From: a virus
Taxonomy: Duplodnaviria > Caudoviricetes
Length of the DNA stretch: 31,508 nt
IMG/VR virus record: IMGVR_UViG_3300044513_001732
Location: 1-31,508 of that record
Reading direction: 5' to 3' (one strand)
The notes under the pieces were generated by a model, which worked only from the letters and a program-made list of their open reading frames with translations, searched no databases and was not told the origin of the DNA. The first letter of the stretch is position 1. Each line of letters opens with the position of its first letter. Both the position numbers and the translations under genes were made by a program. Positions 16,209-31,508 of the stretch are shown one piece after another.

Positions 16209-16268
16209 CCGAGTGGCTTAAGTCCACAGTTTATGGTAAAATAACAGTGTACGCTCTAGTGAAGGAGA

Positions 16269-16481
16269 ATGATATACATGAACAAGGTCCATAGGTTGCG
16301 CAGTTGGATTAGGTACGGTAAGCCCGCCTTTGAGGGCTATACATTTGATCAAGATGTGTACAAGCCTATCACTGGGGAAGACTTTGAGTCTGTGACGGTG
16401 CTTGATTCTCCGGCAGACACTGAGATTAGTCGCCGGTGGGACCGATTTAAGCCGAACCGTAAGGCGCAGGGTTACAAGTGA
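16269..16481 (+). CDS. hypothetical protein
   Basis: AAGGAG SD. Confidence 0.65.
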   Translation: MIYMNKVHRLRSWIRYGKPAFEGYTFDQDVYKPITGEDFESVTVLDSPADTEISRRWDRFKPNRKAQGYK

Positions 16482-16580
16482 TTGCGTTCGGTATGCTAGA
16501 TATTATTGCGATTTTGGCTATCCCTGCTATTTATCTGTTGATTAGATTTCTAGGGAATGATTGAAAGAGAGAACTACCTT

Positions 16581-16748
16581 ATGACCGAAACCGATGTTAC
16601 GTTTACGCAGGTTGATGCTATGATCACACAGATTGAGTCGATGCTCCAGAGTGTGTCTAAAAAGAATCTGGTTGAAGCATCATATATCCAAGACGGGTTG
16701 CTTGACCTGCTGAATATGGCGAATTCATTGGAAGGGAAAGAGCAGTGA
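16581..16748 (+). CDS. hypothetical protein
   Basis: Helical ORF in operon; start could be 16557. Confidence 0.6.
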   Translation: MTETDVTFTQVDAMITQIESMLQSVSKKNLVEASYIQDGLLDLLNMANSLEGKEQ

Positions 16749-16751
16749 CCT

Positions 16752-17006
16752 ATGAAACGATTCTTAAAGTATGCTTTTCGTTGGCAATTATCCACTCCTG
16801 TGCTAGCATTGTGTATTGTTGTCATCCCCGGTGGGGCGCTGTGGCAAACGCTTATAGCAAACGCAGTAGGGGCAGCAATATTCTACCACGTAGACAAAAA
16901 GATATTTAAGCACAAGACTCATCCTGCTAACAGGTCGTCAAGTCAGGAAGTTATTCCCTATAGGATTGCAACTACATTGAAAAATAAGATTAGGTTTTGG
17001 TCATGA
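16752..17006 (+). CDS. small membrane protein (GtrA-like)
   Basis: Two hydrophobic segments; RWQLSTP..IANAVGAAIFY.VDKKIF. Confidence 0.6.
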   Translation: MKRFLKYAFRWQLSTPVLALCIVVIPGGALWQTLIANAVGAAIFYHVDKKIFKHKTHPANRSSSQEVIPYRIATTLKNKIRFWS

Positions 17007-17266
17007 TTTGTGAATTTACAGCGGGAACACAGCATTGGTATGTTGATACTGACATCCAGTATGTGAAGATTGTGGATAAACTCACTGATACTGTGATGAA
17101 AGAATCCTATAGTCTAGGTTTATTGGGGCAGTTGGAGGAGCGTCGGGTCGCTGCTTACGAGAGTACTTACGCTATGATTGGTGTATCTCCCCGCATCAAG
17201 TCGGATCATTACTTCCTTGCGGACTGTGAGAACCGGATTATCTGGATGGAGGATACTTCCAAATGA
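17003..17266 (+). CDS. hypothetical protein
   Basis: ATGA overlaps at both ends. Confidence 0.65.
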   Translation: MICEFTAGTQHWYVDTDIQYVKIVDKLTDTVMKESYSLGLLGQLEERRVAAYESTYAMIGVSPRIKSDHYFLADCENRIIWMEDTSK

Positions 17267-17727
17267 CCGAAACCGCCTATAAGCAATTCGATAAGCAGTT
17301 ATATGACACCTATGATGCAGAGGGCAGGGAGATTGTCAAGAAATATATCCACGATAACTACCCTCATCTTGTAGCCAAAGATAACCTAGATCAGTATGCT
17401 GTAGACCTATGTATCTATAAGGAAGGTACTTTGGTGGGGTATGCTGAGGTGGAGGTTAGGACGAATTGGAAGTCTGAGGCGTTCCCGTTTAGGACGTTGC
17501 ATGTACCTGAGCGTAAGACCAAACTATTAAACAATACTTTACCTACGCTTTTCTTTTCGATCAACGAGCATATGACCCACATGTTTTACTGTAAAGCACA
17601 GACCGTTCTGGACTCACCGCTCGTAAACGTACCCAACAAATACGTATCAAACAACGAACATTTCTACGATGTACCCGTCAGAAACCTCACAAAAACCCCT
17701 ACGAACTGGGTTCAGGGTTGGGGTTAA
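17263..17727 (+). CDS. PD-(D/E)xK-like nuclease-fold phage protein
   Basis: YAVDL...YAEVEVR, HVPERK. Confidence 0.55.
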   Translation: MTETAYKQFDKQLYDTYDAEGREIVKKYIHDNYPHLVAKDNLDQYAVDLCIYKEGTLVGYAEVEVRTNWKSEAFPFRTLHVPERKTKLLNNTLPTLFFSINEHMTHMFYCKAQTVLDSPLVNVPNKYVSNNEHFYDVPVRNLTKTPTNWVQGWG

Positions 17728-17882
17728 TGGAACCATTATGGCTACCCCCTATGTATTGTGAACACTGCGACGTATACTGGGAATCGACAGACACCCAATG
17801 CTGGCTGTGCTCCGATCCCGGCGAAGAACAAAAACGGTACATCCCCAAAGCAACACGGTTAGAAGACGCAGATGCTGAATGA
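17727..17882 (+). CDS. 51-aa zinc-ribbon protein
   Basis: TAATG overlap; CEHC...CWLC. Confidence 0.55.
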   Translation: MEPLWLPPMYCEHCDVYWESTDTQCWLCSDPGEEQKRYIPKATRLEDADAE

Positions 17883-18399
17883 ACTACTACTCGCATCAGT
17901 CATAGGATGGATGCTCACAGGGGCACTCGCAGGATGCTACACCATCTATAAAGTAGTAACCATCATTGTCAAAAAGTACATAAAATCATCTACAAAAGGA
18001 ACCCCAAATGACAAAAATTAGACACTACCTACAGGAAGCAAAAACCGTCTGGATCATGCTCGCCAACATCCGATACGGTATAGACCTACGCCCAAACACC
18101 GGCAACGAACTTCCAAATGACGAAAAAACAGATTCCCAATGAGCCAATTCCCCAACCTAAACGACGACTTCACAAAACGGCTCATCACCGGCCTATGGAG
18201 AACAACCATCACCGTACTCGTCGTCCTAGCAGCCATCAAAGCCTGCACCCCCGACCCAATACACACACCCTGACAAAAGAACTCCCAAATGACTAAAACC
18301 GCTATTTTCTTGACAGTTACCATACTTGCAGGGTACAATGCACTACGAAAGGTCATCGAAATACTGATCGACTGCGAAATGGGTACACTACCCGAATAA
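17872..18399 (+). other. run of four small ORFs (17872-18021, 18008-18142, 18139-18273, 18289-18399), several with hydrophobic segments
   Basis: Overlapping or adjacent ATG-started ORFs with predominantly A/C third codon positions. Confidence 0.5.
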
Positions 18400-18512
18400 A
18401 GCGGCGGCTAATCCTACCACGATACAAAAAGTATCCTAAACCCCATAGTACACACATAACACTATATACCCATATACCGGTATACACAACACCCACACAC
18501 CCAACCTACCCC

Positions 18513-18541
18513 TTGACAAAACTGTAAACAAACAGTAACAT
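18513..18541 (+). promoter_or_regulatory. sigma70-type promoter upstream of whiB
   Basis: TTGACA-17-TAACAT. Confidence 0.65.
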
Positions 18542-18604
18542 ACCCCTAAAGGGGCCTACTAGTAACTATCAAAACACACATTTACACTAGAAGGACCCTC
18601 CACA

Positions 18605-19006
18605 ATGGAACCAAACACAAACCCACTCCAAAACATAACCAAAAACATCCGAACACCTATACAACAACACGAACCACCAAAACCCCCCAAAACACCCCAA
18701 AATACACCACCAGAAACCACCCAATATCACTGGTCTCAGGATGCTTTATGTAGGGGTAAGACTGGTAAGATGTTCCCTCGGGAGCATAAGGATTTGTCGT
18801 ATATTAGTGAGGCTCGTCGTTTGTGTAGGCAGTGTCCTGTGCGTAAGGAGTGTTTGGATTATGCGTTGTCGTTTCCTGCTTCGGATCAGCATGGTGTGTG
18901 GGCTGGGTTGACTCCTAGGCAGTTGGATGCTGAGGCTAAGCGTAGGGGTGTGCGTGCGGAGAAGTTTACTTTGGCTCAGATTTGGTCGCAGTTGAATCGT
19001 AGTTGA
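18605..19006 (+). CDS. whiB: WhiB-family Fe-S transcriptional regulator
   Basis: W..DALC, CRQCPVRKECLDYAL, GVWAGLT. Confidence 0.95.
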   Translation: MEPNTNPLQNITKNIRTPIQQHEPPKPPKTPQNTPPETTQYHWSQDALCRGKTGKMFPREHKDLSYISEARRLCRQCPVRKECLDYALSFPASDQHGVWAGLTPRQLDAEAKRRGVRAEKFTLAQIWSQLNRS

Positions 19007-19051
19007 GTGTCTGTGTATATCGTTGTGCTATCATAGTGGTGGAGGCGTGGT

Positions 19052-19672
19052 ATGGATTCTAATAAACTTTCTAAGGAGTTTTTGGCTGAGCGGGATTCTC
19101 GTATTTTTGGGTTGAAGAAGTCTGGGTTGTCTAATCAGGATATTGCTAAGCGGTTTAATATGACGGCTGCTGCGGTGGCTGCTGCTACTCGGCGTCAGTT
19201 GGGTAGGTTGAATTCTGAGGCTTGGTTGTCGTATCCTGAGGTGTTGCGTTTGGAGTTGGAGCGTTTGGATGAGTTGCAGAAGTCGTTGTGGCCTTTGACT
19301 CAGTTTAGGCGTGAGGTGTTGGATGATGGTTCTGAGGTTATGTTGGAGCCTGATCAGAAGGCTGTGTCTACTGTGTTGGGTATTATGGATAGGCGTGCTA
19401 AGTTGTTGGGTATGAATGTGGAGCGTACTGAGGTTGCGATTTCTGGTTTGGAGGGGCGTGAGGTTGTTGATGTTACGTCGTCTTTGGTTGGGGGTCGTGA
19501 GGTGGTTGTTGATAGGGGTGATGCTCGTGGGGAGTCTTTGGCTTTGTTGGAGTTGATGGCTTCGTCGGGTGTGTTGGATGCGGGTGTTGTGAATAATATT
19601 TTGGATAGTGTTGGTGGTTCCGAGGTTGTTGAGGCTGAGGTTATTGATGAAAGTGAGGACAGAGATGTCTAG
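19052..19672 (+). CDS. HTH protein, probable terminase small subunit
   Basis: N-terminal HTH (GLSNQDIAKRF), LELERLDELQ..LW, AV..VL.IMDRRAKLLG as recalled for actinophage TerS-like proteins. Confidence 0.6.
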   Translation: MDSNKLSKEFLAERDSRIFGLKKSGLSNQDIAKRFNMTAAAVAAATRRQLGRLNSEAWLSYPEVLRLELERLDELQKSLWPLTQFRREVLDDGSEVMLEPDQKAVSTVLGIMDRRAKLLGMNVERTEVAISGLEGREVVDVTSSLVGGREVVVDRGDARGESLALLELMASSGVLDAGVVNNILDSVGGSEVVEAEVIDESEDRDV

Positions 19673-19994
19673 TGATTATTTTAAACAAACTTTTTTGTCG
19701 GATGAGGTGAAGAAGTCTAAGGCTGCTGAGGCTGTTGATTCGGCTCTTGCTGATGATTCTGTTGAGGTTGCGGATGAGGTGCGTGATAAGCAGGTGCTTA
19801 TTCGTGTTTCTGAGTCGCAGCGGGAACAGTGGCAGAATGCTGCGGAGGCTGATGGTTTGTCTGTTTCTGAGTGGCTTCGGCAGATGGCGGATAACAGGTG
19901 GCGTGAGATTTTCACCTGTACTCACCCTTTGGAGAAGCGGCAGTCGTATCCTTGGTCTGAGTTCTGTTTGGATTGCGGTACGAAGATTCGTTAG
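19665..19994 (+). CDS. ribbon-helix-helix-like DNA-binding protein with C-terminal Zn site
   Basis: QVLIRVSESQREQWQNAAEADGLSVSEWLR; CTH...CLDC. Confidence 0.7.
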   Translation: MSSDYFKQTFLSDEVKKSKAAEAVDSALADDSVEVADEVRDKQVLIRVSESQREQWQNAAEADGLSVSEWLRQMADNRWREIFTCTHPLEKRQSYPWSEFCLDCGTKIR

Positions 19995-20009
19995 GGACGC
20001 CATAGGAAC

Positions 20010-20125
20010 ACCATTGGGGGTTCATTTATTGGGTGGGCTAGCCCCGGCTTCGGTTGGGGGTTGGTGCGTCCCGGCTGGTTTGGCGGTGTGGACCAGCGGG
20101 GGCGGGGCTGGTTGACCCTCTAGTG
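20010..20125 (+). ncRNA. candidate structured RNA (two stable hairpins)
   Basis: C(UUCG)G-capped hairpin about 20037-20065; second hairpin CGTCCC-GCTGGTTT/GGACCAGC-GGGGGCG 20067-20104. Confidence 0.35.
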
Positions 20126-20142
20126 TGTTTCTGGGTAAATGG

Positions 20143-20179
20143 GAAAGGGACCCCGGCTTTGCTGCTAGGGTCCCTTTTC
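20143..20179. terminator. probable bidirectional intrinsic terminator
   Basis: GAAAGGGACCC...GGGTCCCTTTTC between convergent units. Confidence 0.8.
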
Positions 20180-20204
20180 TTTGTTTTATTTTGTTGTTTT
20201 TGTT

Positions 20205-20348
20205 TTACCGCCAGTGGGAGGCAGACTTGAGGATTTCTCGTTCCGTCTCGTCTGTCCATTGCCGTCTGTCTTGCGGCACCCAGACTCCGTTGTAGTAGTA
20301 CTCTTTGCGGTGGCGTCGTTGTGCTACGAGTTGTTTAAGTTTAGTCAT
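20205..20348 (-). CDS. 47-aa hypothetical protein (not in ORF track)
   Basis: SD AAGGAGGTGA; promoter TTGCTA-17-TATACT at 20407-20379; MTKLKQLVAQRR...SHWR*. Confidence 0.65.
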   Translation of the reverse strand: MTKLKQLVAQRRHRKEYYYNGVWVPQDRRQWTDETEREILKSASHWR

Positions 20349-20438
20349 TTGTGTGTTTCACCTCCTTAGTACACTGTTAGTATAACTAGGGGCTGTTTGG
20401 ATAGCAACCCGGTTGTTAGTGAAAGCGGTCACAAAGTT

Positions 20439-20517
20439 TGGTACGGGAGTCGGGAATTGAACCCGAGACCACCATTTTATAAGAATGGTTGCAGCAACCA
20501 GCGCCGCACCCTCCCGC
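20439..20517 (-). tRNA. tRNA-Ile(UAU), atypical D-arm
   Basis: GCGGGAG/CTCCCGT acceptor, A73, CCA; CCATT-CTTATAA-AATGG; TCGGG-TTCAATT-CCCGA. Confidence 0.8.
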
Positions 20518-20564
20518 TAGGTACACCATTGGATGTTTATTGAGGAAGATGGTATTATATAAAT

Positions 20565-20789
20565 ATGAGTGATGTGTTTGATATCAACGGGCCGGGGCGT
20601 CCACCGAAGAGAGCAGATTTATCTGTTGCTTCCGTGGGCATGTCGTTCAAAGTTGATCCCCGTTTAAAGAATTTGCTTTTAGATATTGCTGATGGGTATG
20701 GCATTTCTATGACTGAGTTGCTGTTGATGATGGCGATGAAGGAAGCAGGTGTTGAGCAGTTGGAAGATTTGGATGAGCGATCCGAATAA
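20565..20789 (+). CDS. RHH/CopG-like DNA-binding protein (leaderless)
   Basis: GPGRPPK, MSFKVDPRLK..A..YGISMTELL; TATTAT 6 nt before ATG. Confidence 0.7.
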   Translation: MSDVFDINGPGRPPKRADLSVASVGMSFKVDPRLKNLLLDIADGYGISMTELLLMMAMKEAGVEQLEDLDERSE

Positions 20790-21108
20790 GCAAGTGTCGA
20801 TTCATATTTCGATGCCTGCTTGGGTGAAAGAGTTGGTTGCTGAGGCGGCGGAAGAAGAGGGTATGTCGGTGTCACAGTACTGTGCTCACGTTCTCGCTAT
20901 GCGTGCTAGGGACACCATTGGCATTCCTAACCCTCCGCCCGCTGTCGTTCCAATCCCGACGGTCTCTGATGTGTTGCGTACATACGTTGATGGCAGCAAG
21001 ATGATCGGGCCGTGCGGCGAGCCGTGGCCCTGCGAGTACCGTGAGGAGAGCAGTAAGTTCATCGGGGACGCTGAGTTCTGTGGGGCGTGTAACGTTAGGG
21101 TCCATTAG
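20773..21108 (+). CDS. RHH-like DNA-binding protein with C-terminal Cys4 site
   Basis: VSIHISMPAWVKELVAEAAEEEGMSVSQY; C..PWPC...CGAC. Confidence 0.7.
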   Translation: MSDPNKQVSIHISMPAWVKELVAEAAEEEGMSVSQYCAHVLAMRARDTIGIPNPPPAVVPIPTVSDVLRTYVDGSKMIGPCGEPWPCEYREESSKFIGDAEFCGACNVRVH

Positions 21109-21338
21109 AATGGCTCCACTGCTGTAGCGTCGCAGCCGTCTGGGAGTTCAAGCAGCCTGATGATGCCGAACGTTCCGCCGTAGGACTGTTCCATTATCAG
21201 TTCCATTTGTTTAAAGGTTCCCATTGAGAGCACGAAGTTGTCTTCCATGTCTACTAGACAGAAGTCGTCAGGGATCAGCCATGCTTTGATCTGGTAGTAG
21301 TAGTGCATCAGTAGGTTGTAGGTCATGTATTTAGCCAT
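21105..21338 (-). CDS. hypothetical protein
   Basis: AAGGAG SD before ATG 21338. Confidence 0.55.
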   Translation of the reverse strand: MAKYMTYNLLMHYYYQIKAWLIPDDFCLVDMEDNFVLSMGTFKQMELIMEQSYGGTFGIIRLLELPDGCDATAVEPF

Positions 21339-21679
21339 TCGTCCATCTCCTTTTGTCCGTGGTTTTCCTGCTCGTATAGTTCCACGAACATTTCTACCTT
21401 GTCGGCGTTGCGAAAGATGAGAGTTAGGTCGTGGTATTTCTTGTTGCCGGGGTTCCGCCCGTTGTGCCAGTCGGATAAGGAACAGCCGATGATTGCTTTG
21501 CGACATGTGTCTGCACCGTATGCTTTGATTGCTGCTGAGAGTTTCTTGCTTCGTGCGTCGTCTAATACTGTTGTTGATCGCTTGCCGAATGTTTCTTTCC
21601 AGAAGTCGAAGAGTTCTTGGATGCTGTCCGTAGGGACACCATTGACTTCTTTATGACCGAATAAGTTGAGGTCTTCCAC
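21323..21679 (-). CDS. protein resembling the C-terminal domain of phage replication initiators
   Basis: FDFWK...KAIIGCSLSDWHNGRN..KKYHDLTLIFRNADKVE; AAGGAGG SD before GTG. Confidence 0.55.
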   Translation of the reverse strand: MEDLNLFGHKEVNGVPTDSIQELFDFWKETFGKRSTTVLDDARSKKLSAAIKAYGADTCRKAIIGCSLSDWHNGRNPGNKKYHDLTLIFRNADKVEMFVELYEQENHGQKEMDEWLNT

Positions 21680-21759
21680 TGTTCCTCCTTTCAAACTGTA
21701 ATTGTTGAGTTAATATATTCATTGAACGGTTTTCGTCGGGGTTAGCCGTTCAGAACGAC

Positions 21760-21799
21760 GGAAGGGCCGGGGGATGAGAGGATTTCCCCCGGCCTTTCC
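21760..21799 (-). terminator. terminator-like hairpin after VWA gene
   Basis: GGAAGGGCCGGGGGA / TCCCCCGGCCTTTCC. Confidence 0.7.
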
Positions 21800-21814
21800 T
21801 GATTATGAGAGGCA

Positions 21815-23407
21815 TCAAGCCGTCTGCCCAATCAACTCCTTCCAACGAGGCAGGATATTAGGCTTGTATGCGTTGCCCCTCTTGAGTCCGTTCAGGTATT
21901 CGATTGCTCCCTGCGGAGAGAATTCCATGTGGACCCTGTTCTTCTGCGCAAACTTGGCGCATTCGATTTCGTCAAACTGGCCTGCGCCCCGTGGGCGGTA
22001 GACCATGCCGTCGGTGACCCAAACGACTGGAGCCTTGGCGTTCTGCCGTTGCTTCACTGCGTACTGGATGGCTGGCATGTCGTTGCCGTTGCCGCCGCCC
22101 ATCTTGGGAAGTTCGTCACAGATTTTGCCCTTCTCACCGAGAATGTAGCAGTTTGGCTCGTAACTCCTCCAGTGCGCCGAGTAGGCAAGTACTGTGCATC
22201 CGGGAGCGGCCACCATGAGTTCACGGACATCCTCTTTGGAGAGTGACATGGAGCCTGAGCAGTCGATTAGAATCACACCGCCGCTGGCCTTCACATACTT
22301 GTCGAAGATGCGCTTCTCAGGGTCTGTGATGAGCCTGTGCATACGGCGAGGGTTGCGCCCCATGTTGGTGGCAACACGCTTACGTCCGATGGCACCGGGA
22401 ACGGTGATGCTCATAGGCATACGCTTCACGTTGAGTTCTAGCCAGTCACCTACACCTTGGTGTCCGATGCGTCCGTTTAGAATCTCTTTGGCTCGCTTCT
22501 GAAGGTCCTTGCGATTAATTGTCTTATCTTTCTTCTCCTGAAGGTCCTCCGGCTCTTCGTCGTCTCCGAGTTTGGCGGCACCTCCGGGGCCGTTGCCCGA
22601 AGCCTCAGCGTCATCTGAGTCCTCGGTGTCGTCGGCCTCGTCGGCCTCGTCTGCATCGGCGTCATCTTCTGCCACGTCATCCTGTTCCTGAACCTGTGTG
22701 GGTGCAGGTAGGGCCGCAATGGACTCTAGAAGCATGGCCAGTTCGATGGTGAAGTTCATACCCACGATGGTCTGCGAGTTATGGTTCGGAGCAGTGTTGC
22801 CGTAAACAGACAGTGCATGACTCTGGTCGGTGTTGTTGACTCCGTACAAGCGTCGCTTGATTTCACGGATTTGCTTGTTTTGGAATGCGACGATTTCCTT
22901 GGCGATGTTGCGCAAAGAGTCGGCCCACACTGGGTCAATACGTCGGATACCTACCAGCAGTGGGTTAAGACTGCCCGTGTGGACTGCCGCCGCTACTGCG
23001 AACACTGCCGCTTCCCAAGCGCCCTGAGTGGCCAGCATCTCACCGTCAAACTTCTCTGAACCGGTCTCCATGGCCTTCATAGGGAAGCCTAGTTGTGAGG
23101 CAATGTAGTTAACACGTGCTTCCTCTGCCGCACGGATAGCCTGTTCGCCTGTCACCTCGTTGATGTAGTCGTTCAGGTCCTGCGGAGAAACTTTAACGTG
23201 AATTTGTTCGTGTGCCCGGATTGCCTTGGCAAGTTGCGAGTCGTCAAGTGGGACCCGCATGATGCGCCCACCTACAGTGATGTAGGGTTCGCCTCGCACC
23301 GCACGAACATTACCCACATCCCATCCGCCTGTGTTGCGGATATCCTTGCGGGTAAACAGTTCAGGCATCGGCCTGTTTCTGTTGTGTACTTCGTCAATAA
23401 TCGTCAT
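21815..23407 (-). CDS. VWA-domain protein with N-terminal HExxH metallopeptidase-like domain (CobT-like architecture)
   Basis: AHEQIH..EEARVN, acidic linker, MIDAS DCSGSM, GGGN, VWVTDG. Confidence 0.85.
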   Translation of the reverse strand: MTIIDEVHNRNRPMPELFTRKDIRNTGGWDVGNVRAVRGEPYITVGGRIMRVPLDDSQLAKAIRAHEQIHVKVSPQDLNDYINEVTGEQAIRAAEEARVNYIASQLGFPMKAMETGSEKFDGEMLATQGAWEAAVFAVAAAVHTGSLNPLLVGIRRIDPVWADSLRNIAKEIVAFQNKQIREIKRRLYGVNNTDQSHALSVYGNTAPNHNSQTIVGMNFTIELAMLLESIAALPAPTQVQEQDDVAEDDADADEADEADDTEDSDDAEASGNGPGGAAKLGDDEEPEDLQEKKDKTINRKDLQKRAKEILNGRIGHQGVGDWLELNVKRMPMSITVPGAIGRKRVATNMGRNPRRMHRLITDPEKRIFDKYVKASGGVILIDCSGSMSLSKEDVRELMVAAPGCTVLAYSAHWRSYEPNCYILGEKGKICDELPKMGGGNGNDMPAIQYAVKQRQNAKAPVVWVTDGMVYRPRGAGQFDEIECAKFAQKNRVHMEFSPQGAIEYLNGLKRGNAYKPNILPRWKELIGQTA

Positions 23408-23562
23408 ATCAATCTCCTCTCTAGATGATGACATCATTTTAGCATAGATGGTTGGTTGCTGTCAAATCGAAAGCGAGGGGAGGGAGGCCAACCAATCCTC
23501 CCTCCCCTCTGTGTGGGTGAGGGAGCAGCACCACTCTGCTCAACCTCACCGGACTGGCACGG

Positions 23563-24282
23563 TCAGTCAGCCATCTGGAAGCGGTCAATCTTGATGGCTT
23601 CCAAGAAAGCGTCGGCACGTGGTCCGAGAATAAGTTGTGCAGCCTTTTCCTCGCCCATCTGGTTAGACAGTTTGTGCATGGATTGGAACAGACGGAGCGA
23701 CATACGCTCGGTGCCTGCGTCGGCCATACGGTCTGCGTAGTTCCTCCAGTGTGGAGGCAACGTCAGAAGAGCGTCAGGGTGCGGACGGTCGATTCGGATG
23801 CGAACTGGGAACCGGTCAGTAAGAGCCTCTGGGAGTTCTCCCACCTGTTCCACGTTGGTCGTCATGATGACCGTGTAGCCCGGAGAAGGGTATGTCTTTT
23901 CGCCGGTAACGGGATGCTCCCACTCGGCAGACTCCGAAGAGTCCGTCATGTTGAGAAGGGTAGCGAACACGTCGCCACCTGCCTTGTCAATCTCGTCAAT
24001 AACGAGTCGGCCACCTGAACGACGTGCCTTAATGGCCGCACCTTCAATGTAGTCGAAGCCGCTCCCGCTAGGGAGAAAGCCGCCGATGACTTCCATGTTG
24101 GTCATGTCGTCGGTGCAGGTGAGTCGGTGTGATTCCTGTCCGGGCCGCTTGTTCACGTGCAGTGACGTGAAGGTCTTACCGGTTCCGGGTGGGCCGTAGA
24201 GTACGATTCGGTCTACGCCTGCGGCTAGGACCTGATTGAAGGTGTCCCAGCAGTTTGTTTCGGTTTGGGTTGCGGTTGTCAT
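23563..24282 (-). CDS. MoxR/CbbQ-type AAA+ ATPase (CobS-like)
   Basis: Walker A GPPGTGKT, Walker B LVIDEID, MTTN, ALTDRF. Confidence 0.9.
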   Translation of the reverse strand: MTTATQTETNCWDTFNQVLAAGVDRIVLYGPPGTGKTFTSLHVNKRPGQESHRLTCTDDMTNMEVIGGFLPSGSGFDYIEGAAIKARRSGGRLVIDEIDKAGGDVFATLLNMTDSSESAEWEHPVTGEKTYPSPGYTVIMTTNVEQVGELPEALTDRFPVRIRIDRPHPDALLTLPPHWRNYADRMADAGTERMSLRLFQSMHKLSNQMGEEKAAQLILGPRADAFLEAIKIDRFQMAD

Positions 24283-24334
24283 GGTTGGTTCCCTTTCGGT
24301 AGTGGTTGATTACGTTCGTAAGTTTAGCAGATGG

Positions 24335-24730
24335 TCAGACGCTTGTCAAGTTCAAAGCGGCATTTAGATTGACCCAATCTCGCCAAGGCATGTGATGGGT
24401 CATGTTTTCATCAATATCCATGAAGCCGACGATAGGCTCCTTGCCCCATCCGGTCCAGACGATGCTAGGGCTGTCATGGCTGATGTCAAAGGGTCGGCAG
24501 TCGTCACCGATGATGATGCCGTAGCCAGTGCTACCGCCTTCCAGTTCGGTGAGAGTGTCGAAAATGATGCGGGCACAGTAGGCGTCGTCGGTGATTCGAC
24601 CTTCGCTGTCTGCTCGCTGTAGGGCATCGGATACGACGGTGTTCACTTCACTGCCTCGCCAGTGGGTGTAGAAGTGGATGGCGGTGTCGCTTCCTTCTTG
24701 CTTGATTCGGATGGTTGCTCTGTCTCCCAT
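24335..24730 (-). CDS. hypothetical phage protein
   Basis: AAGGAGG SD; MGDRA..IHFYTHWRG. Confidence 0.8.
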   Translation of the reverse strand: MGDRATIRIKQEGSDTAIHFYTHWRGSEVNTVVSDALQRADSEGRITDDAYCARIIFDTLTELEGGSTGYGIIIGDDCRPFDISHDSPSIVWTGWGKEPIVGFMDIDENMTHHMPWRDWVNLNAALNLTSV

Positions 24731-24840
24731 GATGGGCCTCCTTGTGGTTGTTGGGTTGGTGTTCCACATTATAGTGCATGTGGATGTGGGCTGTCAAGTA
24801 TTTCTTTTGATGCGTGCGCTAGGGACACCATAGAGGTGTA

Positions 24841-25146
24841 TTAGAAGTCATCAGTCAGACTCAACTGGCCCTCTAACTCTTGGTTAAAGTTTTCGCTGAT
24901 GTAAGACCGGATAGCGTCTGCTTCTGAGTTAACTCGGTCCCAGCGCATCCAATCAATCCACTCATCGAAGGTCATGCCGACAGTACTAACGACTTCGCCA
25001 ATCTCTCCTACGTAGTGGTCCATGATGATCCCCTCTTGGGTAATGGTGACGTTGAGCGTTACTCCGTCACCTAGGTCAATGTCTCCTCGCCATAAGTCAC
25101 CGTGGCCAGTGTGAACGTTTAGGTAAACCTTCTCAGTCAGCATCAC
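24841..25146 (-). CDS. hypothetical protein
   Basis: Overlaps upstream gene by 4 nt. Confidence 0.7.
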   Translation of the reverse strand: MMLTEKVYLNVHTGHGDLWRGDIDLGDGVTLNVTITQEGIIMDHYVGEIGEVVSTVGMTFDEWIDWMRWDRVNSEADAIRSYISENFNQELEGQLSLTDDF

Positions 25147-25481
25147 ACACCCACCGTCTGATAGGCGAGGCGATCATCTACGGAGTGGATACCGGTAACC
25201 CACCACTCACGGTCGGCGTTGAGTTCGGCCCACTGTGCGGCGTCATCCCATGACAGGAAAGGTCCGACAATACGAATGCCGTCGAACACGTTACCCACGA
25301 CTACGACGTGAAGATTATCTAGAGTGTCGTTATTGAACACTGCCGTTTCGACCAGTTCGTGATCTTCAGGCCAGATAGCGGTATCGTCTGTGTTGACTAG
25401 AACACACTCGTCGGCCTTCAGGATAGTTCCCGTGCCTCCGTGAACGATGAATGTGGTTTGATCTGCGGGATAGACTTTCAT
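25143..25481 (-). CDS. hypothetical protein
   Basis: AAGGAG SD, own promoter. Confidence 0.75.
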   Translation of the reverse strand: MKVYPADQTTFIVHGGTGTILKADECVLVNTDDTAIWPEDHELVETAVFNNDTLDNLHVVVVGNVFDGIRIVGPFLSWDDAAQWAELNADREWWVTGIHSVDDRLAYQTVGV

Positions 25482-25545
25482 GTTTACTCCTTTGGTTAGT
25501 TGGTTGAGATGAGCAGTTTATCATCATGCTCAGGATGGTGTCAAA

Positions 25546-26445
25546 TCAGACGGCGGCGAGAAGCATCTCACGTGCCGTCAGGGTCAGGGTCTGAGCATCC
25601 TGAGGGTCGGTGACGACCTTGGTCTGCTTCATTTCCTGAGCCTTACCCTTGGTACCGAGGTGGTACTCGTAAGACTGCACTGCTTGGTAGAGGCTGAAGG
25701 CGTTCTCACCGAACTTCTCCACTTCCTCGCCGTAGAAGTACATGATGCCGTCACGGCGCTTCTCAGCGAAGTTTACAGCCTTCTGGTTGGCATCGGGGTC
25801 GGTGATGAGAGGTGCTACCTCGTCCAGAATCCGGTTGCGGAGACTGTTGGTCATCTGAAGCCCCTTCAGCATTGTGGCGTTAGTGATAAATGCTTGGAAG
25901 CGATTCGCCGCCTCTGCCATAATCTGAGCCTTGCTGAACAGCATCTCGTCGTGGTTCTTTGACCGCTTCTGAGACATCTGGAGTTCGCCCAGACCTTCCT
26001 GATTGGTGCAGAAGGGTCGGAAGGTGAATCCGATGGCACGAGTGCTGAACGTGCTGTTCATGCTTGCCGTGTACATGATTGAACGGGTGAGGCTGTCACC
26101 GTCAGCAAACGTGTAAGGCTCGTCAATGTCCTGAGTGAACACGAGGATGGAACCGTGGTGCCACGTTTTCATGCCAGTGACTGACTCGGGAAACATCGCC
26201 TCAGCAGTGTTCAGAATCGACTCGTATGAGCCGCTGTAGTAGTTGGCACCAGCGCCAGCCTTCAGCACAGCCTGAGTACCGTCTGCGTACTCACGGTAGA
26301 TGGTGAAGGTGTCCTTATCTTCCGTCTTGTTAGGAAGGATGGTGCCTACCTTCTTGGGTGTGAACAGTGCGTTGTTGTCCAGAGCCGCATCCATTGCGGA
26401 GACTCCGTTCTCGTACTGCTTGTTGGTGGAGAGCATGTAGCCCAT
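25546..26445 (-). CDS. DUF932/DUF945-family protein
   Basis: TFRPFCTNQ, AFSLYQAVQSYEYH resemble DUF932 motifs. Confidence 0.65.
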   Translation of the reverse strand: MGYMLSTNKQYENGVSAMDAALDNNALFTPKKVGTILPNKTEDKDTFTIYREYADGTQAVLKAGAGANYYSGSYESILNTAEAMFPESVTGMKTWHHGSILVFTQDIDEPYTFADGDSLTRSIMYTASMNSTFSTRAIGFTFRPFCTNQEGLGELQMSQKRSKNHDEMLFSKAQIMAEAANRFQAFITNATMLKGLQMTNSLRNRILDEVAPLITDPDANQKAVNFAEKRRDGIMYFYGEEVEKFGENAFSLYQAVQSYEYHLGTKGKAQEMKQTKVVTDPQDAQTLTLTAREMLLAAV

Positions 26446-26522
26446 TTTGTGTGACCTCCTTGGTCGGTTGTTGTTACTGATGTAACTTTATCACAGGTTT
26501 CCTACGCCTGTCAAGTTTTGTT

Positions 26523-26879
26523 TCAGATTTCTTCGGAATCTTGGCATTCGCCGTTGCACCAGCGGGTGGACTCGCCACAGTTCCAGCACTCGTCGTCCTC
26601 GTCCTCCTGAGGATCGAAGTCGATGGTGATGCTGACGATACGGTTCCCGCTGTAGGTCGCCGTGACGGGGTAGCAGCCGTCACCGTAGGCGGTGCTAGTG
26701 ACCACTCCGCCAGCGACCTCGCCAGCGCCGTTGTCGCCTAGCGTGATACGGCAGGCGGCATCGTAGTTACCGCCAGTCGGCTCACCGCCGGGGATGAAGT
26801 GGTCGCTCCAGACGTAGCACGGGTCGATGAGCAGAATCTGCCCGCTATCTACTCCGCAGTATCCGATGATTTTTTCCAT
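26523..26879 (-). CDS. DUF4241-like protein with Cys-rich tail
   Basis: GVDSGQILLIDPCY, TAYGDGCYPV; AAGGAGG SD. Confidence 0.65.
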   Translation of the reverse strand: MEKIIGYCGVDSGQILLIDPCYVWSDHFIPGGEPTGGNYDAACRITLGDNGAGEVAGGVVTSTAYGDGCYPVTATYSGNRIVSITIDFDPQEDEDDECWNCGESTRWCNGECQDSEEI

Positions 26880-27158
26880 TGTGGTGACCTCCTTGGTCGG
26901 TGGGTTGTTTCTCAACCTTACCACATCCCTGTGACACCTGTCAAATCGTAGATAAGGTTTGTTGTTGAGGGTGATAACCCTATCAGTATCCACCAGCAAC
27001 CACAACCCCGTAACACAATCGTAACATTTTACAAAAACAACTCTTCACAAAAGCGCCGGATTTTCAGAAAAGTTCGCAGCCGCTGCCGGACAGCCCCGCT
27101 TCGGTGGCAAGGGTAAGCCAGCCCCGCATAGCAGCAAAGCAGCCGGGACGTTCCGACC

Positions 27159-27227
27159 CTACCTGTTCTTGATGTAAGTAAGAACAATCAAAGTGATGAT
27201 GGGAAAGATGATACTCAAATAAAGCAT
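27159..27227 (-). CDS. 22-aa hydrophobic peptide (leaderless)
   Basis: TTGACG-17-TAAGAT-6-ATG; MLYLSIIFPIITLIVLTYIKNR*. Confidence 0.45.
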   Translation of the reverse strand: MLYLSIIFPIITLIVLTYIKNR

Positions 27228-27280
27228 ACTATTATCTTATTGCGAGTCGGGTACTCCGTCAATACCACAGTTCCAAATAG

Positions 27281-27307
27281 AAAAGCCCGCCACCAGAAGT
27301 GACGGGC
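27281..27307 (-). terminator. intrinsic terminator
   Basis: Minus strand GCCCGTCAC-TTCTG-GTGGCGGGC-TTTT. Confidence 0.75.
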
Positions 27308-27329
27308 AAACGGGTAAGGATAATGCAAC

Positions 27330-27581
27330 TCAGGCTTGGTCTAGTTCGTAAGTATCTTCTAGGATACAGAACATAGTCCAGTTGTAGTGCGATGCGATGT
27401 CGGCAGCAAAGTGCTTCTCATCGGGGTCGTTCCAGTCGTCTGTTAGGACTTGTAGAACGTCGGTAGGTATCTCGGCTAAGGGTTCCTCGGCCTCAATGTC
27501 TACCGATTCGGGAAGGGTTTTACGATTGCTGTAAAGTACCCATCCGATTTCTCGTACAAAGTTATCTCTTGTTAGTTCCAT
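27330..27581 (-). CDS. hypothetical acidic protein
   Basis: Operon context; start could be GTG 27587. Confidence 0.7.
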   Translation of the reverse strand: MELTRDNFVREIGWVLYSNRKTLPESVDIEAEEPLAEIPTDVLQVLTDDWNDPDEKHFAADIASHYNWTMFCILEDTYELDQA

Positions 27582-27596
27582 TTTCACCCCCTTTCC

Positions 27597-27767
27597 TCAG
27601 TTGTCCATGTTCTGCTCTATGTGGATTACTTGGTCGCACTCTCCAGTATTACCATCCCACTCGTCAATGACTTCGTAGTCACCAACGTAAATGGCTTCCT
27701 CGCTGTCGGCTTCGACCAGTTTGTGTGTGTAAATCTCATCTAAGACGAGGATGGTGTATTTGCTCAT
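27597..27767 (-). CDS. small acidic protein (DpnD/PcfM-like)
   Basis: GGAGG SD; VEADSEEA. Confidence 0.6.
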   Translation of the reverse strand: MSKYTILVLDEIYTHKLVEADSEEAIYVGDYEVIDEWDGNTGECDQVIHIEQNMDN

Positions 27768-27768
27768 G

Positions 27769-27990
27769 TCAGTCGTCCTCCTCAATGTCAATGGATTGGA
27801 ACGTGATGCGTCCTAACTTCTCGCTGATGACAGTCCAGTAGCCGTCCTCATCGTCGGCTTTAGCAGAAAACATAGGCATGGCTTCTGATTGTTCGACGTA
27901 AAAGGGGTCTCCTCCTTCATCCCATCCAACGACAAGCAGGGAACCGTCGTCCCTGCCGTCGTAATCGGTGAACCGCAGATACTGCTTCAT
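27769..27990 (-). CDS. hypothetical acidic protein
   Basis: GGAGG SD before ATG 27990. Confidence 0.7.
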   Translation of the reverse strand: MKQYLRFTDYDGRDDGSLLVVGWDEGGDPFYVEQSEAMPMFSAKADDEDGYWTVISEKLGRITFQSIDIEEDD

Positions 27991-27991
27991 G

Positions 27992-28183
27992 TCAGTTGTC
28001 CTCCCATACGTTGATGGGGCAGTAGTCGTCGTCATCCTCAGGGACAACAACGGTGGTGTCGGGAATCCACCAAAGAACAGAATCCCACTTCTCGTATTCC
28101 TCTTGAGCAATCTCGGTTGCTTCTTCAGGGCTGTCAGCCACAACGTCGATGGTGAAAGTCATTGTCTGTCGGTAGCGTGCCAT
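27992..28183 (-). CDS. small acidic protein (DpnD/PcfM-like)
   Basis: FTIDVVADSPEEATEIA. Confidence 0.6.
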   Translation of the reverse strand: MARYRQTMTFTIDVVADSPEEATEIAQEEYEKWDSVLWWIPDTTVVVPEDDDDYCPINVWEDN

Positions 28184-28184
28184 G

Positions 28185-28535
28185 TCAGTTGTCCTCCTGT
28201 TCCTCGGGATATTCCACTTCATCCCAGATGATTGAGTTTAGGCACTCCCAGCCCTGCTCGCACATCCATTCTTCCATCCACCTGTTCCAGCCACCGCTGT
28301 TCATGACAGCATAGACAGCCTCATCCATTTCTTCAGGGATGTACGGCTCTTTACCGTCTGCGTCACGACGCTGTTTGATACTTTCTCTAACGTCGTCCTC
28401 GCTGAACATGGTGCCTGCCCATCCGAACTCTTGCCTCATAGCGTGGAGAAATAGGAAGGCTTGTGTCTCATCCATGATGACGGTTTGGTTTCCCACTTCG
28501 ATGGACTTGTATTGGTTGTTGTCGTCGGTATTCAT
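28185..28535 (-). CDS. hypothetical acidic protein
   Basis: GAGGAG SD, own promoter. Confidence 0.75.
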   Translation of the reverse strand: MNTDDNNQYKSIEVGNQTVIMDETQAFLFLHAMRQEFGWAGTMFSEDDVRESIKQRRDADGKEPYIPEEMDEAVYAVMNSGGWNRWMEEWMCEQGWECLNSIIWDEVEYPEEQEDN

Positions 28536-28630
28536 GTTGCTCCTCTCGGTTGGTTGATTATTGCATTATCCCACAAAAGGGAGAGGACTGTCAAGTCCTC
28601 CCCCCTCCGTAGGGACACCATAGGGATGTA

Positions 28631-29359
28631 TTAGAAGTCTACTAACGCCCCCTGCATAGCAGCGATGCGTTCGTGGTAGTCGATGAGCCGGTCACGAACG
28701 TCATCTTGGATTTCCCATGCGTCGTCGTTGTCCCAGTCAAAGTCCTCGGGCAGATGGTCGCTAAACGAACCGGAACTATCGTAGGTCACACCGTCGATGA
28801 TGACGCTTGCCCCGATAAAGTCCATACCTCCCTCAAAGTAGGTCAGGCTGACCTTCACCCCGAACTTCTGGCTAACCTTTTCCAGTAGAGCGATAGGCGG
28901 TGCCCATGCCGTGTTGCCACTAATGTGGATGGCCTCGGGGTCACGGTCTACGTCGTAGGTGTAACTAACGACATCCATGCTCCACTTCGTGCCCCACTCG
29001 TTGTTTGCCCACGAGTACCAGTCGGCATAGCCGGTCTCGGCCTTCGCACGTTCGGCACGTTCGATGAGAGCGTAATGCTCGGCCTTGTCCTCCTCGTAAT
29101 GCTCGGGAGTCCAACGCTCGTTAGCAGGGTCGTCTACGAGAGCCTGCCAACGCCCCTCGGGGTCGTATTCGCCGGTAGGGGCAGGCGCACGAGTCCCCTG
29201 TAGTACCTCGGGCATGGGAACGAGTCGCATAGGCTGACCCATCTCAGGGTCGCTGTCTGCGCTACGTTCGTAGCCCTCTGACTTCATGATGAAGTCGATG
29301 TTGGAGAGCCTACCGTAGTCGCCCTCAATCGTAATGTGGTTCTCGCACCAGTTAGGCAT
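28631..29359 (-). CDS. DUF1281/YubB-like ferredoxin-fold protein
   Basis: MPNWCEN, WYSWANNEWGTKW, TAWAPP, YFEGGMDF.G. Confidence 0.8.
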   Translation of the reverse strand: MPNWCENHITIEGDYGRLSNIDFIMKSEGYERSADSDPEMGQPMRLVPMPEVLQGTRAPAPTGEYDPEGRWQALVDDPANERWTPEHYEEDKAEHYALIERAERAKAETGYADWYSWANNEWGTKWSMDVVSYTYDVDRDPEAIHISGNTAWAPPIALLEKVSQKFGVKVSLTYFEGGMDFIGASVIIDGVTYDSSGSFSDHLPEDFDWDNDDAWEIQDDVRDRLIDYHERIAAMQGALVDF

Positions 29360-29372
29360 AATGTGTCTCCTA

Positions 29373-29546
29373 TCAGTTGTAGTTGGGGTTGTCTGCGTCG
29401 TAGCCGTAGTCATCGGCACGCTGAGTAACGTAGGCACCAAAGCCGTAGTCCTCAGCCATCTCCGCTAGGTCGTCGTAGTCGATGTCAAAGTCCTCAGGGT
29501 CGTAGCCCTCGGTGTCAATGTCGTAGTGGTCGGTGTAGGTATCCAT
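29373..29546 (-). CDS. 57-aa Asp/Tyr-rich protein (not in ORF track)
   Basis: GAGGAG SD, own promoter; MDTYTDHYDIDTEGYDPEDFDIDYDD... Confidence 0.7.
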   Translation of the reverse strand: MDTYTDHYDIDTEGYDPEDFDIDYDDLAEMAEDYGFGAYVTQRADDYGYDADNPNYN

Positions 29547-29633
29547 GATGCCCTCCTCAGGGTCGTTGTGGTTGGTATTAGTAAAACTAGCATATGGGGG
29601 AGGCTCCTGTCAAATCGGAGCCTCCCCGATGCC

Positions 29634-30026
29634 TCATCGCTTCGGCTGAGTGACCTTCACGGCCTTCACGTTAGCCACCTTCGTGAACTTGTCCACGATG
29701 GCTTGCTTCAGCCACCCTGCGCTCACGGCCTCGTCTACGAGAGCCTGCTGAACGACTCGCTTGCTGAGTCGCTGATGCTGACCCTCTGGCAGAGCCTCAC
29801 GAGCACCCTCTTGGTCGATGGTGCGACGGTTCTGCTCAACGATGGCGACCTTCGTGCCATCTTCCAGAATGACCGCATCGGTGTTGAGAGCACGGAAGGC
29901 TTCCTCAGCCTTCTCTGCCTCAGCCTTAGCCTCTGCGAGCAGAGCACGAGCCTCAATGACTCGCCGTGCCGTCATCTCGTTCACCTTGTCGGTGTTGATG
30001 TTGATGGTTTCGGTGTTGGTGTTCAT
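29634..30026 (-). CDS. hypothetical coiled-coil phage protein
   Basis: AAGGAGG SD; EARALLAEAKAEAEKAEE. Confidence 0.8.
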   Translation of the reverse strand: MNTNTETININTDKVNEMTARRVIEARALLAEAKAEAEKAEEAFRALNTDAVILEDGTKVAIVEQNRRTIDQEGAREALPEGQHQRLSKRVVQQALVDEAVSAGWLKQAIVDKFTKVANVKAVKVTQPKR

Positions 30027-30111
30027 CTGACCCTCCTTAGGTCTGTTATTTGATGATGATTACATCTTACAGCAAGGGTGTGACATTCACAACCCCTGCC
30101 GAAAGATTATT

Positions 30112-30393
30112 TCAGATTTCTTCTCCGCATAGGTAGCACTCGCTACCGACGGGCTGAGTGGTGAAACAGCATGTGGCTTCTTCTACTCGCATAGGTGCGG
30201 TGGCGGTGTCGGCTTCACACCCGCAAGGCTCAGCGTGGAGAATGTAGGTATCGGTGTAGCGGTGCGTCTGTCGGCAGACGTTCGGGTGCTCACGGAGTAG
30301 GTGCTGAAGGTAGGTGTCACGCTCTCGGATAGTGCGCTCGCCGTTGGCTAGTGCTTCGGTTACTCGTTGGTTGATGAGTTGTGTTTTGTTCAT
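30112..30393 (-). CDS. hypothetical Cys-rich protein
   Basis: GGAG SD; ends CYLCGEEI. Confidence 0.65.
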   Translation of the reverse strand: MNKTQLINQRVTEALANGERTIRERDTYLQHLLREHPNVCRQTHRYTDTYILHAEPCGCEADTATAPMRVEEATCCFTTQPVGSECYLCGEEI

Positions 30394-30570
30394 GTCTCCA
30401 TTCTTACCACCGATTGAGACAGAGTGCAACACTCAAAACTTCATCTTCATAAAACTGTAACATTAGAAGAAATCTTGCCGATGGGGTTGCGGTTGGTTCC
30501 CGATGATGGTAGTATCGGTGTCGTACCCGATGAGGTACACTAACTAAACCAACTAGAGAAGGAGCCAGAG

Positions 30571-30762
30571 ATGGCTAAACGTAAGATAAAAGTAGAGTTC
30601 ACCGAAGCAGACCAGCGTAAGGCGCTGGCTCGGATGAACTGGGAGCGTAGTGTCGCAGAGATGGCTGAAGGTCGTCGCCTGCGTGCTACTACGTTCGCAG
30701 ACCGACGCAAGAAGGCTAGCCGTGAGGCGTGCCGGAAGCAGAACCGTCAGGAATGGTTCTGA
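30571..30762 (+). CDS. small basic hypothetical protein
   Basis: AAGGAG SD; RATTFADRRKKASREACR. Confidence 0.75.
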   Translation: MAKRKIKVEFTEADQRKALARMNWERSVAEMAEGRRLRATTFADRRKKASREACRKQNRQEWF

Positions 30763-31040
30763 TGGCTTCCAGAGCAGATGCGACCCCTCTCTCCCTCGGA
30801 GATAGGTTCTATCTAGTCTTAGAAGCCGTCAACATGATTGAGGAAGGTCTAAAGGCTCTCCACGATGAGGCAGTAGATGATGGTATCAAACCCGATGACT
30901 ACGAACTACTGGACTCGCTAGACGAACTCCGCACAACGTCATACGCTTCGCTACTCGCCACAATGGTGAACGACAGAGAAGAAGCAAATGCGATAGTTGC
31001 ACTCATGAAGCAGGAAAGCAAAGCACTCAACAACGAGTAA
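30762..31040 (+). CDS. hypothetical protein
   Basis: TGATG coupling. Confidence 0.7.
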   Translation: MASRADATPLSLGDRFYLVLEAVNMIEEGLKALHDEAVDDGIKPDDYELLDSLDELRTTSYASLLATMVNDREEANAIVALMKQESKALNNE

Positions 31041-31056
31041 AATAGAAAAAGAACCG

Positions 31057-31088
31057 GAGAACCCCGTCAGAAATGGCGGGGTTTTCTC
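31057..31088 (+). terminator. intrinsic terminator
   Basis: GAGAACCCCGTCA-GAAA-TGGCGGGGTTTTCTC. Confidence 0.8.
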
Positions 31089-31123
31089 ATTGCTGCGGGA
31101 CGTTCTGACCGTACACTAGAAGT

Positions 31124-31508
31124 ATGAACTGCGAACGGGATTATCAAAGAACTTGGTTGTATCGCTCCGAATGGGAGATACTTGATGACTTTGATGAACT
31201 TTCGCTGCTAGAATGTTGGCGTTTTCTGGCAGAAACTATCACAAACAAGAAGTTTGTCAAGCGATTTCCACAAACTTATGAGTATTTAGCGGGAAACTGG
31301 GACAAAGCGGGGCGTGCTGACCCGCAGGAACACCGAAGGAAAAGGCTGCTGTATCTTCACCTCGGTGATAAGCGTGGCGGCCTAAAACTACGCCCCGGAT
31401 ACAGAAGAAGGTACGCTGAAGCCCATTGTTCCACGATTACTTTGCCTTGTTGGAGTAGGAATAAACTTACGTTATTGCATGAACTCGCACACATTTGTTG
31501 TTGGAGTG
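31124..31508 (+). CDS. HExxH metallohydrolase (Rv0185/TIGR04338-like), 3'-truncated
   Basis: Open to window end; RDYQRTWLYRSE ... LPCWSRNKLTLLHELAH; TACACT 6 nt before ATG. Confidence 0.75.
   Translation, partial: MNCERDYQRTWLYRSEWEILDDFDELSLLECWRFLAETITNKKFVKRFPQTYEYLAGNWDKAGRADPQEHRRKRLLYLHLGDKRGGLKLRPGYRRRYAEAHCSTITLPCWSRNKLTLLHELAHICCWS

Follow-up and report, generated by a model that had tools for sequence, protein, structure and literature searches.

A stretch of 31,508 nucleotides from an uncultured aquatic tailed phage of the Caudoviricetes (IMG/VR record IMGVR_UViG_3300044513_001732, positions 1 to 31,508; the whole stretch is called the window here) carries an abrupt inversion of strand composition at about position 18,730, inside a gene for a whiB-family transcription factor. 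Relatives carry a second, equally sharp switch beside a Snf2-type helicase gene, at the other edge of a block of small genes. The explanation that fits best, which we judge about equally likely to be right or wrong, is that the two switches are the physical ends of a direct terminal repeat of 23-29 kb, where 3' ends prime error-prone synthesis. The window is part of a large tailed phage genome: relatives are 128-148 kb long and carry sheath, baseplate, capsid, and terminase genes. The presence of whiB suggests an actinobacterial host.

A strand-composition switch inside whiB

Composition was examined with the log-likelihood ratio (LLR) for a step in G+T fraction, the null being 300 base shuffles and 300 shuffles of 50-base blocks. 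The LLR was 92 at 18,730 and no greater than 8.5 at all points more than 2 kb away; the shuffle maxima were 12.6 (bases) and 25.8 (blocks). The cumulative G+T walk bottomed at 18,730, and the G+T fraction rose from 0.26 in the 500 bases on the left to 0.68 on the right, with GC skew passing from -0.48 to +0.58 and AT skew from +0.42 to -0.36. Within whiB itself, G or T occupied 3/38 third codon positions before 18,730 and 83/85 after it (Fisher p 8e-25), and the recoding of the N terminus to A/C-rich codons reached the amino acids. On the right, third positions were G or T in 186 of the 192 codons of a gene resembling that for the small terminase subunit (TerS-like gene) and in 91/100 of the gene that follows it, with a weaker tail (0.67-0.78) to about 21,700. 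On the left, four small open reading frames (ORFs) at 17,727-18,273 had third-position G/T fractions of 0.22, 0.20, 0.14, and 0.03. Genes at 7.8-17.7 kb and 20.2-29.4 kb gave a background of 0.47-0.76.

The original prediction, made from the sequence of the window, had described a sharp inversion at this point that fades with distance and involves no change of coding strand. Each of these features was borne out: the coding strand is the same on both sides, and the bias decays over 1.3-2 kb. A change of coding strand or of amino acid content was ruled out as the cause, with the effect lying at third positions and on genes of either strand. The doubt that the junction might be an assembly chimera was also answered. 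An unbroken contig spans 18,391-19,350 in run X1 and another spans 18,391-19,338 in run X2, and the flip is present in 7/7 close viral loci and shared by 25 related whiB genes; it is genuine. No conserved motif, inverted repeat, or hairpin was found at the switch, and no repeats longer than 35 bases were found among the largest families listed for 17,400-20,600. The proposed placement at the junction of CCAATATCAC and TGG did not hold, the switch falling anywhere between whiB codons 28 and 75 (a drift of 140 bases) across 19 loci.

To characterize the bias, its spectrum and decay were pooled over these 19 loci, which are related and not independent, as are the counts given here. Within 750 bases of the center, T/(C+T) and G/(A+G) on the outward 5'-to-3' strand were both 0.78-1.0 on both sides. 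The C-to-T-type and A-to-G-type biases were equal and decayed together, and each arm is G/T-rich on the strand whose 5'-to-3' direction leads away from the center, the polarity of a strand extended from a 3' end located there. Substitution spectra among relatives, which the original prediction had proposed as a check, were informative. At four-fold sites of the right arm compared with locus L001, 40/41 differences were swaps between G and T, with 1 transition in 140 sites; outside the arms there were 356 transitions in 1,809 four-fold sites. Right-arm sites evolve, yet any A or C is removed. On the L007/G001 branch, 41 third positions went from G/T to A/C and 4 went the opposite way, a pattern suggesting that the biasing force has stopped in L007 and that the bias is eroding.

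The footprint had been attributed to C>T and A>G mutation of a recurrently exposed strand around one fixed site. A mirror-symmetric, strand-specific footprint round a fixed place stood up to analysis, while deamination of exposed single strands fared less well. Cytosine deaminates far faster than adenine, and exposure alone should therefore give a longer C-to-T arm; the equal spectrum and joint decay fit G·T mispairing better, although mitochondrial gradients keep deamination under consideration. The observed pattern is exactly that produced when a new strand takes up G opposite T and T opposite G by mistake. Replication errors are more often G/T mismatches, which in Actinobacteria, a group lacking MutS, are handled by EndoMS/NucS together with the clamp (PMC6159521). 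In the phages studied here, G·T errors presumably escape repair.

A second switch and the spread of the bias

The single site of the original prediction gave way on comparison with relatives, in which there is a second switch at the other edge of the putative early gene block. It lies just beyond the 3' end of the Snf2-type helicase gene, at the far edge of the small-gene block: at 16,727 in G026 (LLR 97) and at 104,536 in G027 (LLR 92), two long records of the window's clade that were identified by their Pol A gene. Helicase codons ending in G or T numbered 6/605 in G026 and 4/605 in G027, with 4/373 and 22/397 in two partial loci; in six records without a strong flip the share was 0.44-0.51. 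The skew on the helicase side extends up to ∼6 kb. G001 holds both sites, 29 kb apart and both weakened (157/604 in the helicase, 0.67 in the TerS-like gene), and the fading of both switches together points to one process. Records G030 and G026 do not overlap, but their names share a prefix; if, as we infer from this, they belong to one genome, together they give a block of at least 22.5 kb. Between the two switches are small unknown genes, DUF932, and an AAA ATPase.

Arrays of short sites lie inside the far edge, consisting of 26-base repeats and LexA-type palindromes in G026, 12 DnaA-type boxes in G027, and palindrome arrays in G001; the boxes were recognized by the DnaA and LexA consensuses. 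No DnaA-type boxes were found at the second switch of G026, and neither DnaA nor LexA boxes were found at the window's switch. Arrays of both types are dense in or at the edge of the putative early block throughout the family, also where there is no flip (Table 1), and are possibly decoys for host proteins. G001 additionally has a one-sided gradient of A/C-rich third positions, ∼10 kb long (30-39.8 kb), that ends at the palindrome arrays. An apparent extra flip at 29,862 in G026 was dismissed as a poly-threonine stretch, the one at 92,067 in G027 lying in the homologous gene. The ends of several contigs (G028, L324, L325, and G027) fall within an arm or shortly after a switch, perhaps owing to low complexity or to the depth step described below.

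A search for the same inversion in related phages had been suggested, and the inversion was found, though patchily. Of 44 distinct whiB rows, 26 have the switch or its G/T side (the window and 25 relatives, of which one is weak and three are truncated), 14 are unbiased, 3 fall entirely within an arm, and 1 is uninformative. An upward flip with an LLR of at least 25 was present in 11/80 viral loci with a TerS-like homologue, and an LLR of at least 38 was reached in 13/69 further whiB loci, from four lineages. On a quick tree of the TerS-like protein, the bias occurs in the window's clade, in L047 but not its sisters, and in L031 with L048. In other lineages, some centers are at the end of whiB, and others are within or next to small ribbon-helix-helix-like genes or inside a replication-initiator-like gene. 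Given these wandering positions, the switch marks a neighborhood, the hinge of two converging gene blocks, rather than a sequence. A sharp reverse switch near 18,190 in G018 lies between two of the several centers of that record.

Genes around the switches

Features of the window and the box arrays of related genomes are collected in Table 1. The WhiB domain scored 58.8 bits against a curated cutoff of 23.6. A promoter as a general tie to the switch was rejected, since the association holds only in the window's clade. The family to which the two small genes at 20,565-21,108 belong has the switch in it or beside it in other lineages. The minus-strand block contains a replication-initiator-like gene, an AAA ATPase, DUF932, and many unknowns, and would represent early genes inside the terminal repeat.

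Table 1 Features of the window, with box arrays in related records
Feature	Position	Strand	Remarks
Switch from A/C-rich to G/T-rich	18724..18731	.	On + strand; whiB codon 41-43; putative left end of terminal repeat
Left arm	17700..18730	-	Bottom strand G/T-rich, top A/C-rich; + third positions 0.03-0.34 G/T; background by ~1.3 kb
Right arm, saturated part	18731..19994	+	Third positions 91-98% G/T
whiB-family transcription factor gene	18605..19006	+	Holds the switch; Pfam PF02467, E 8e-16
Sigma-70-type promoter-like site, TTGACA-17-TAACAT	18513..18541	+	~190 bases ahead of the switch; TTGAC unchanged in all 17 aligned loci
Second promoter-like site	18310..18339	+	11/12 matches
Five small ORFs (36-51 aa)	17727..18399	+	In left arm; no family matches; variable among relatives
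Helix-turn-helix protein, likely small terminase subunit	19052..19672	+	Far from terL
NikA-like ribbon-helix-helix protein gene	19665..19994	+	PF21983, E 2e-8
tRNA-Ile (TAT anticodon)	20439..20517	-
Two small genes of one family	20565..21108	+	Second: weak ribbon-helix-helix match
Mostly minus-strand gene block	21105..31508	-	Converges on whiB operon; far edge outside the window
Box array, G003	90.6-92.8 kb
Box array, G005	115.4-117.6 kb
Box array, G002	39.4-39.6 kb
Box array, G013	1-3.5 kb
Box array, G026	16.3-16.7 kb
Box array, G027	104.6-104.9 kb

The product of the TerS-like gene is likely a TerS, judging from its predicted structure. The model has an N-terminal helix-turn-helix (helices 3-56) and two long helices, which may correspond to the two-helix oligomerization domain of solved TerS proteins, with a predicted template-modeling score (pTM) of 0.31. 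Structural matches of the helix-turn-helix reached Z 9.0 (root-mean-square deviation [rmsd] of 3.0 over 54 residues). The top Foldseek rows from the PDB were the SPP1-like and G20c TerS proteins, weak at E 0.06-0.25, with G20c TerS giving Z 6.8 and an rmsd of 8.7 over 105 residues; annotated TerS proteins in BFVD (predicted viral structures) matched at E 4e-5. No cultured-phage match to the protein was found, very distant homologues having been less fully sampled. The gene is not adjacent to terL, unlike the usual, though not obligatory, arrangement: in record coordinates, the distance is 57-79 kb in G001-G004 and G007 and 50 kb in G005. Its association with the flip, to which the original prediction had pointed, proved to be a loose one: the start of the TerS-like gene is 1.4-2.2 kb upstream of the flip in three loci, and in G003 and G005 a weak flip stays by whiB with the TerS-like gene ∼40 kb off. 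A general tie of the switch to the TerS-like gene was therefore rejected; the switch follows whiB.

Elsewhere in the window, nine genes matching 2-oxoglutarate (2OG)-Fe(II) oxygenases are clustered, on both strands, at 17-11,663. There are five tRNA genes, those for Ser, Trp, Arg, and Thr at 15,554-16,210 and that for Ile, whose anticodon is unusual, in Table 1. A cassette encoding a sigma factor, a polymerase of the Pol A type, and, separately, a DnaQ-like exonuclease is found only in the window's clade (G001, 71.7-75.6 kb), with homologues in G006, G008, G009, and G026-G028.

Origin of the switches and comparison with known systems

A genome terminus was among the origins first proposed for the footprint and is the best reading here, although no molecule end was observed in the assembled contigs. 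The block between the switches would be a terminal repeat, and free 3' ends would prime short tracts of synthesis in which G·T mispairs stay uncorrected. Invasion of the other repeat copy by a genome end, or annealing to it, would drive synthesis outward, and duplication of the repeat from a nick at packaging, as in the T7-type model, would drive it inward. The new strand would take G opposite T and T opposite G until the template is nearly all A and C. Extension of a 3' end both outward and inward at each boundary would produce each of the four arms in its correct orientation. A trans-acting host or phage factor may decide if the errors persist, which would explain the patchy spread. Pol A, present in 4/4 long records of the window's clade and 0/21 other records searched, was considered as this on/off factor, but it is confounded with clade and unproven, the 21 others including partial records from lineages that bear the flip. 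Near Pol A, at 15/20 loci, are genes resembling those for IMPDH/GMP reductase (L350:11,091-12,095, in G026) and pyrimidine-dimer glycosylase (L350:15,239-15,826, in G026). Both genes are absent from the two long records whose bias is weaker, G001 and G006; this is a lead only.

Contig depth, which in all runs is a per-contig sum and not a copy number, gave a weak hint of a terminal repeat to the right of the switch. In long contigs almost identical to the window, depths left and right were 13.3 and 21.2 in X1, 15.2 and 26 in X2, 72 and 126.1 in X5, and 19.5 and 41.4 in X11; the median right:left ratios in these 4/4 runs, from two studies, were 1.66, 1.83, 2.06, and 2.46, with strain divergence as a confounder. 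Depth in X5 was 48.5 at 18,548 and 113.9 at 18,736. The medians were taken over 8 left bins (10,336-15,671) and 6 right bins (19,674-24,342) and cover one edge of the block. The other 16/30 bins were omitted, namely, eight with patchy cover (5,000-10,335), five holding tRNAs and variable genes (15,672-19,006), that at 19,007-19,673, the one where relatives lack a gene, and the last. Shares of 0.18-0.27 from the run search were assigned to relatives rather than to the window's own genome.

A number of observations weigh against the switches being molecule ends. The depth ratios are only 1.23-1.67 when calculated against the highest left bin, and the switch-bridging contig of X1 and X2 keeps its low depth (13.2 and 15.4) to ∼19,340. 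Strain divergence alone produces a larger step in X3 and X7, runs that are nearly uncovered left of the switch and uninformative on copy number. Both strong switches were not observed together on one contig: G026 and G027 are without the whiB locus, and G001 is weakened. Complete relatives G004 and G022 lack a two-armed flip. G018 has centers near 13,440, 17,960, and 18,560 and G020 has centers at 11,500 and 14,091, more than one end on that side explains; these need extra history, such as shifted boundaries or mosaic joins. Known ends of T5, SPO1, phiCbK, and Jay2Jay (both ends of each), as well as the P22 pac site, are without the flip (all LLRs at most 0.2), which means that an end is not sufficient by itself. 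Among cultured phages, the closest TerL proteins are those of psiM2 (45% identity) and of Gordonia phages such as Chidiebere, with neighbors as mixed as psiM2, Gordonia phages, and Felix O1-like coliphages; psiM2 and Chidiebere-like phages are presumably circularly permuted and packaged by the headful mechanism. The 140-base wandering of the switch, which is only a proxy for the end, also contrasts with phiCbK-like termini, conserved to the base (PMC3556154).

With the TerS-like gene only 320 bases away, the whiB switch might instead be a headful pac cut made by TerS/TerL, at which both ends of scattered cuts prime recombination-dependent synthesis and from which the helicase switch is separate (for example, an origin). 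Scattered cuts would fit the transition zone and the 140-base drift, a short headful series would fit a depth step below twofold, and psiM2, which has the nearest TerL, has its best upward flip (LLR 20) in its terS. We nevertheless consider this unlikely: the psiM2 signal is short and far from saturated, no such flip was seen at the P22 pac site or in Chidiebere, and the flip remains near whiB where the TerS-like gene is ∼40 kb off, while the second switch is equally sharp and fades with the first in G001. Replication starts would also give the observed polarity, which equals that of an origin. The whiB switch would then be a promoter-primed R-loop origin and the helicase switch a DnaA-type origin, the first 1-6 kb of the leading strands being left uncorrected. 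In the window's clade there is a conserved promoter 150-190 bases upstream of the switch and a Pol A-type polymerase is encoded, and arrays of DnaA-type and LexA-type boxes flank the second switch. However, the promoter was not seen ahead of the centers in other lineages, no Pol A turned up in partial records (G016 and G017) from two further lineages that bear the flip, the window's switch has no DnaA or LexA boxes, and at the second switch of G026 the boxes are of the LexA type, accompanied by 26-base repeats, with no DnaA boxes. Moreover, the skew does not span a replichore, whole-record profiles being flat elsewhere, and depth looks flat on each side with no peak, leaving origins a distinctly unlikely source of the switches.

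The patchy spread on the tree, the several centers per genome, and the placement of centers inside conserved genes would all be explained by recurrent internal double-strand breaks, made by a homing nuclease, a host defense, or a mismatch nuclease and followed by error-prone repair from an intact copy or by gene conversion favoring G·T. A PD-(D/E)XK-like gene (weak, E 0.0017) does lie 1 kb from the window's switch, but no such gene was found in L001, L006, L007, or L011, all of which bear the flip. Bias at 99% of 605 sites would probably need an event in a large share of generations, and neither the bracketing of one gene block nor the depth step is explained, making break scars very unlikely. 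The near-complete purity of the arms and the changed N-terminal amino acids of WhiB could be taken as signs of selection for a G/T-only strand, which would either give a packaging or recombination protein its direction or prevent exposed single strands from folding. Such selection is extremely improbable, in that G and T interchange freely, neither a motif nor a long repeat is present, the bias is absent from relatives that carry the same genes, and it is eroding in L007.

If the ends of a long terminal repeat are indeed responsible, the switches would let the genome ends of an abundant uncultured phage family be located from sequence data only, and they would provide a record of new-strand starts at a long terminal repeat and a natural on/off system for very strong local mutation bias. 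To our knowledge, strand starts at long terminal repeats are still poorly understood. Close relatives with and without the bias, together with one lineage losing it, make the cause testable. A broader form of the terminal-repeat reading is doubtful, though worth stating: both chromosome ends would be zones of directed G·T hypermutation in every generation, switched in trans, with entire genes recast in a two-letter silent code (99% of the 605 codons of the helicase), extra centers recording boundary shifts, and ends readable from sequence, and the same 3'-end-primed chemistry would underlie GRINS (discussed below).

Phages with long terminal repeats (T5, SPO1, phiCbK, Jay2Jay, and XacN1) resemble the phages studied here in having converging small genes inside one boundary, a repeat-rich non-coding far edge, a boundary that interrupts a gene, and DnaA-type boxes close to a boundary; raised depth within the block may be a further likeness. 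In Jay2Jay and T5, genes converge just inside the left end, as they do beside the window's switch. Boxes of the DnaA type are found 70-90 bases from the end in Jay2Jay and within the injection-stop region in T5, and 12 lie beside the G027 switch. The phiCbK end has been placed inside a gene and was recognized by twofold depth over the repeat (PMC3556154), and terminal repeats of 22 and 66 kb are on record (PMC5852040). The differences are that the four of these phages tested have no G/T-A/C switch at their ends and that boundaries are mapped there and only inferred here. A titles-level literature search revealed no paper on such switches at phage ends. Headful pac sites (P22 and psiM2) share a TerS-like gene beside the site and a scattered center, but the P22 pac site has no flip, and the phages studied here have terL 57-79 kb away and a second sharp switch. 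In psiM2, A/C-rich third positions lie just before the best upward flip of the genome, inside terS (L196 4,127-4,961; ORF7 and terS); a literature search on psiM2 packaging found nothing.

At bidirectional origins, the leading strand has a G/T bias (PMC6159521), and the bias described here has the same sign, with G and T in excess on the outward 5'-to-3' strand. It differs in being local (1.3-2 kb, or ∼6 kb by the helicase), ∼100% at silent sites, and centered in a coding gene. The nearest described phenomenon is GRINS, which are duplicated stretches of >500 bp under gene conversion for which error-prone G/T copying has been proposed (PMC8256042). Here, repeats among the families listed within 17,400-20,600 are at most 35 bases long, as opposed to the duplication of >500 bp at >80% identity that defines GRINS, and the biased stretch, which is single copy within the region examined, has mirror symmetry around a point and weakens with distance. 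Absolute GC and TA skews, however, exceed 0.15 over >500 bp, as in GRINS, and GRINS also have correlated, intense GC and TA skews with a maximum at third positions, abrupt changes, and an actinobacterial setting. GRINS are defined by duplication but share the skew; if the terminal-repeat reading holds, the switches may bear on the unexplained origin of GRINS-type skews in Actinobacteria.

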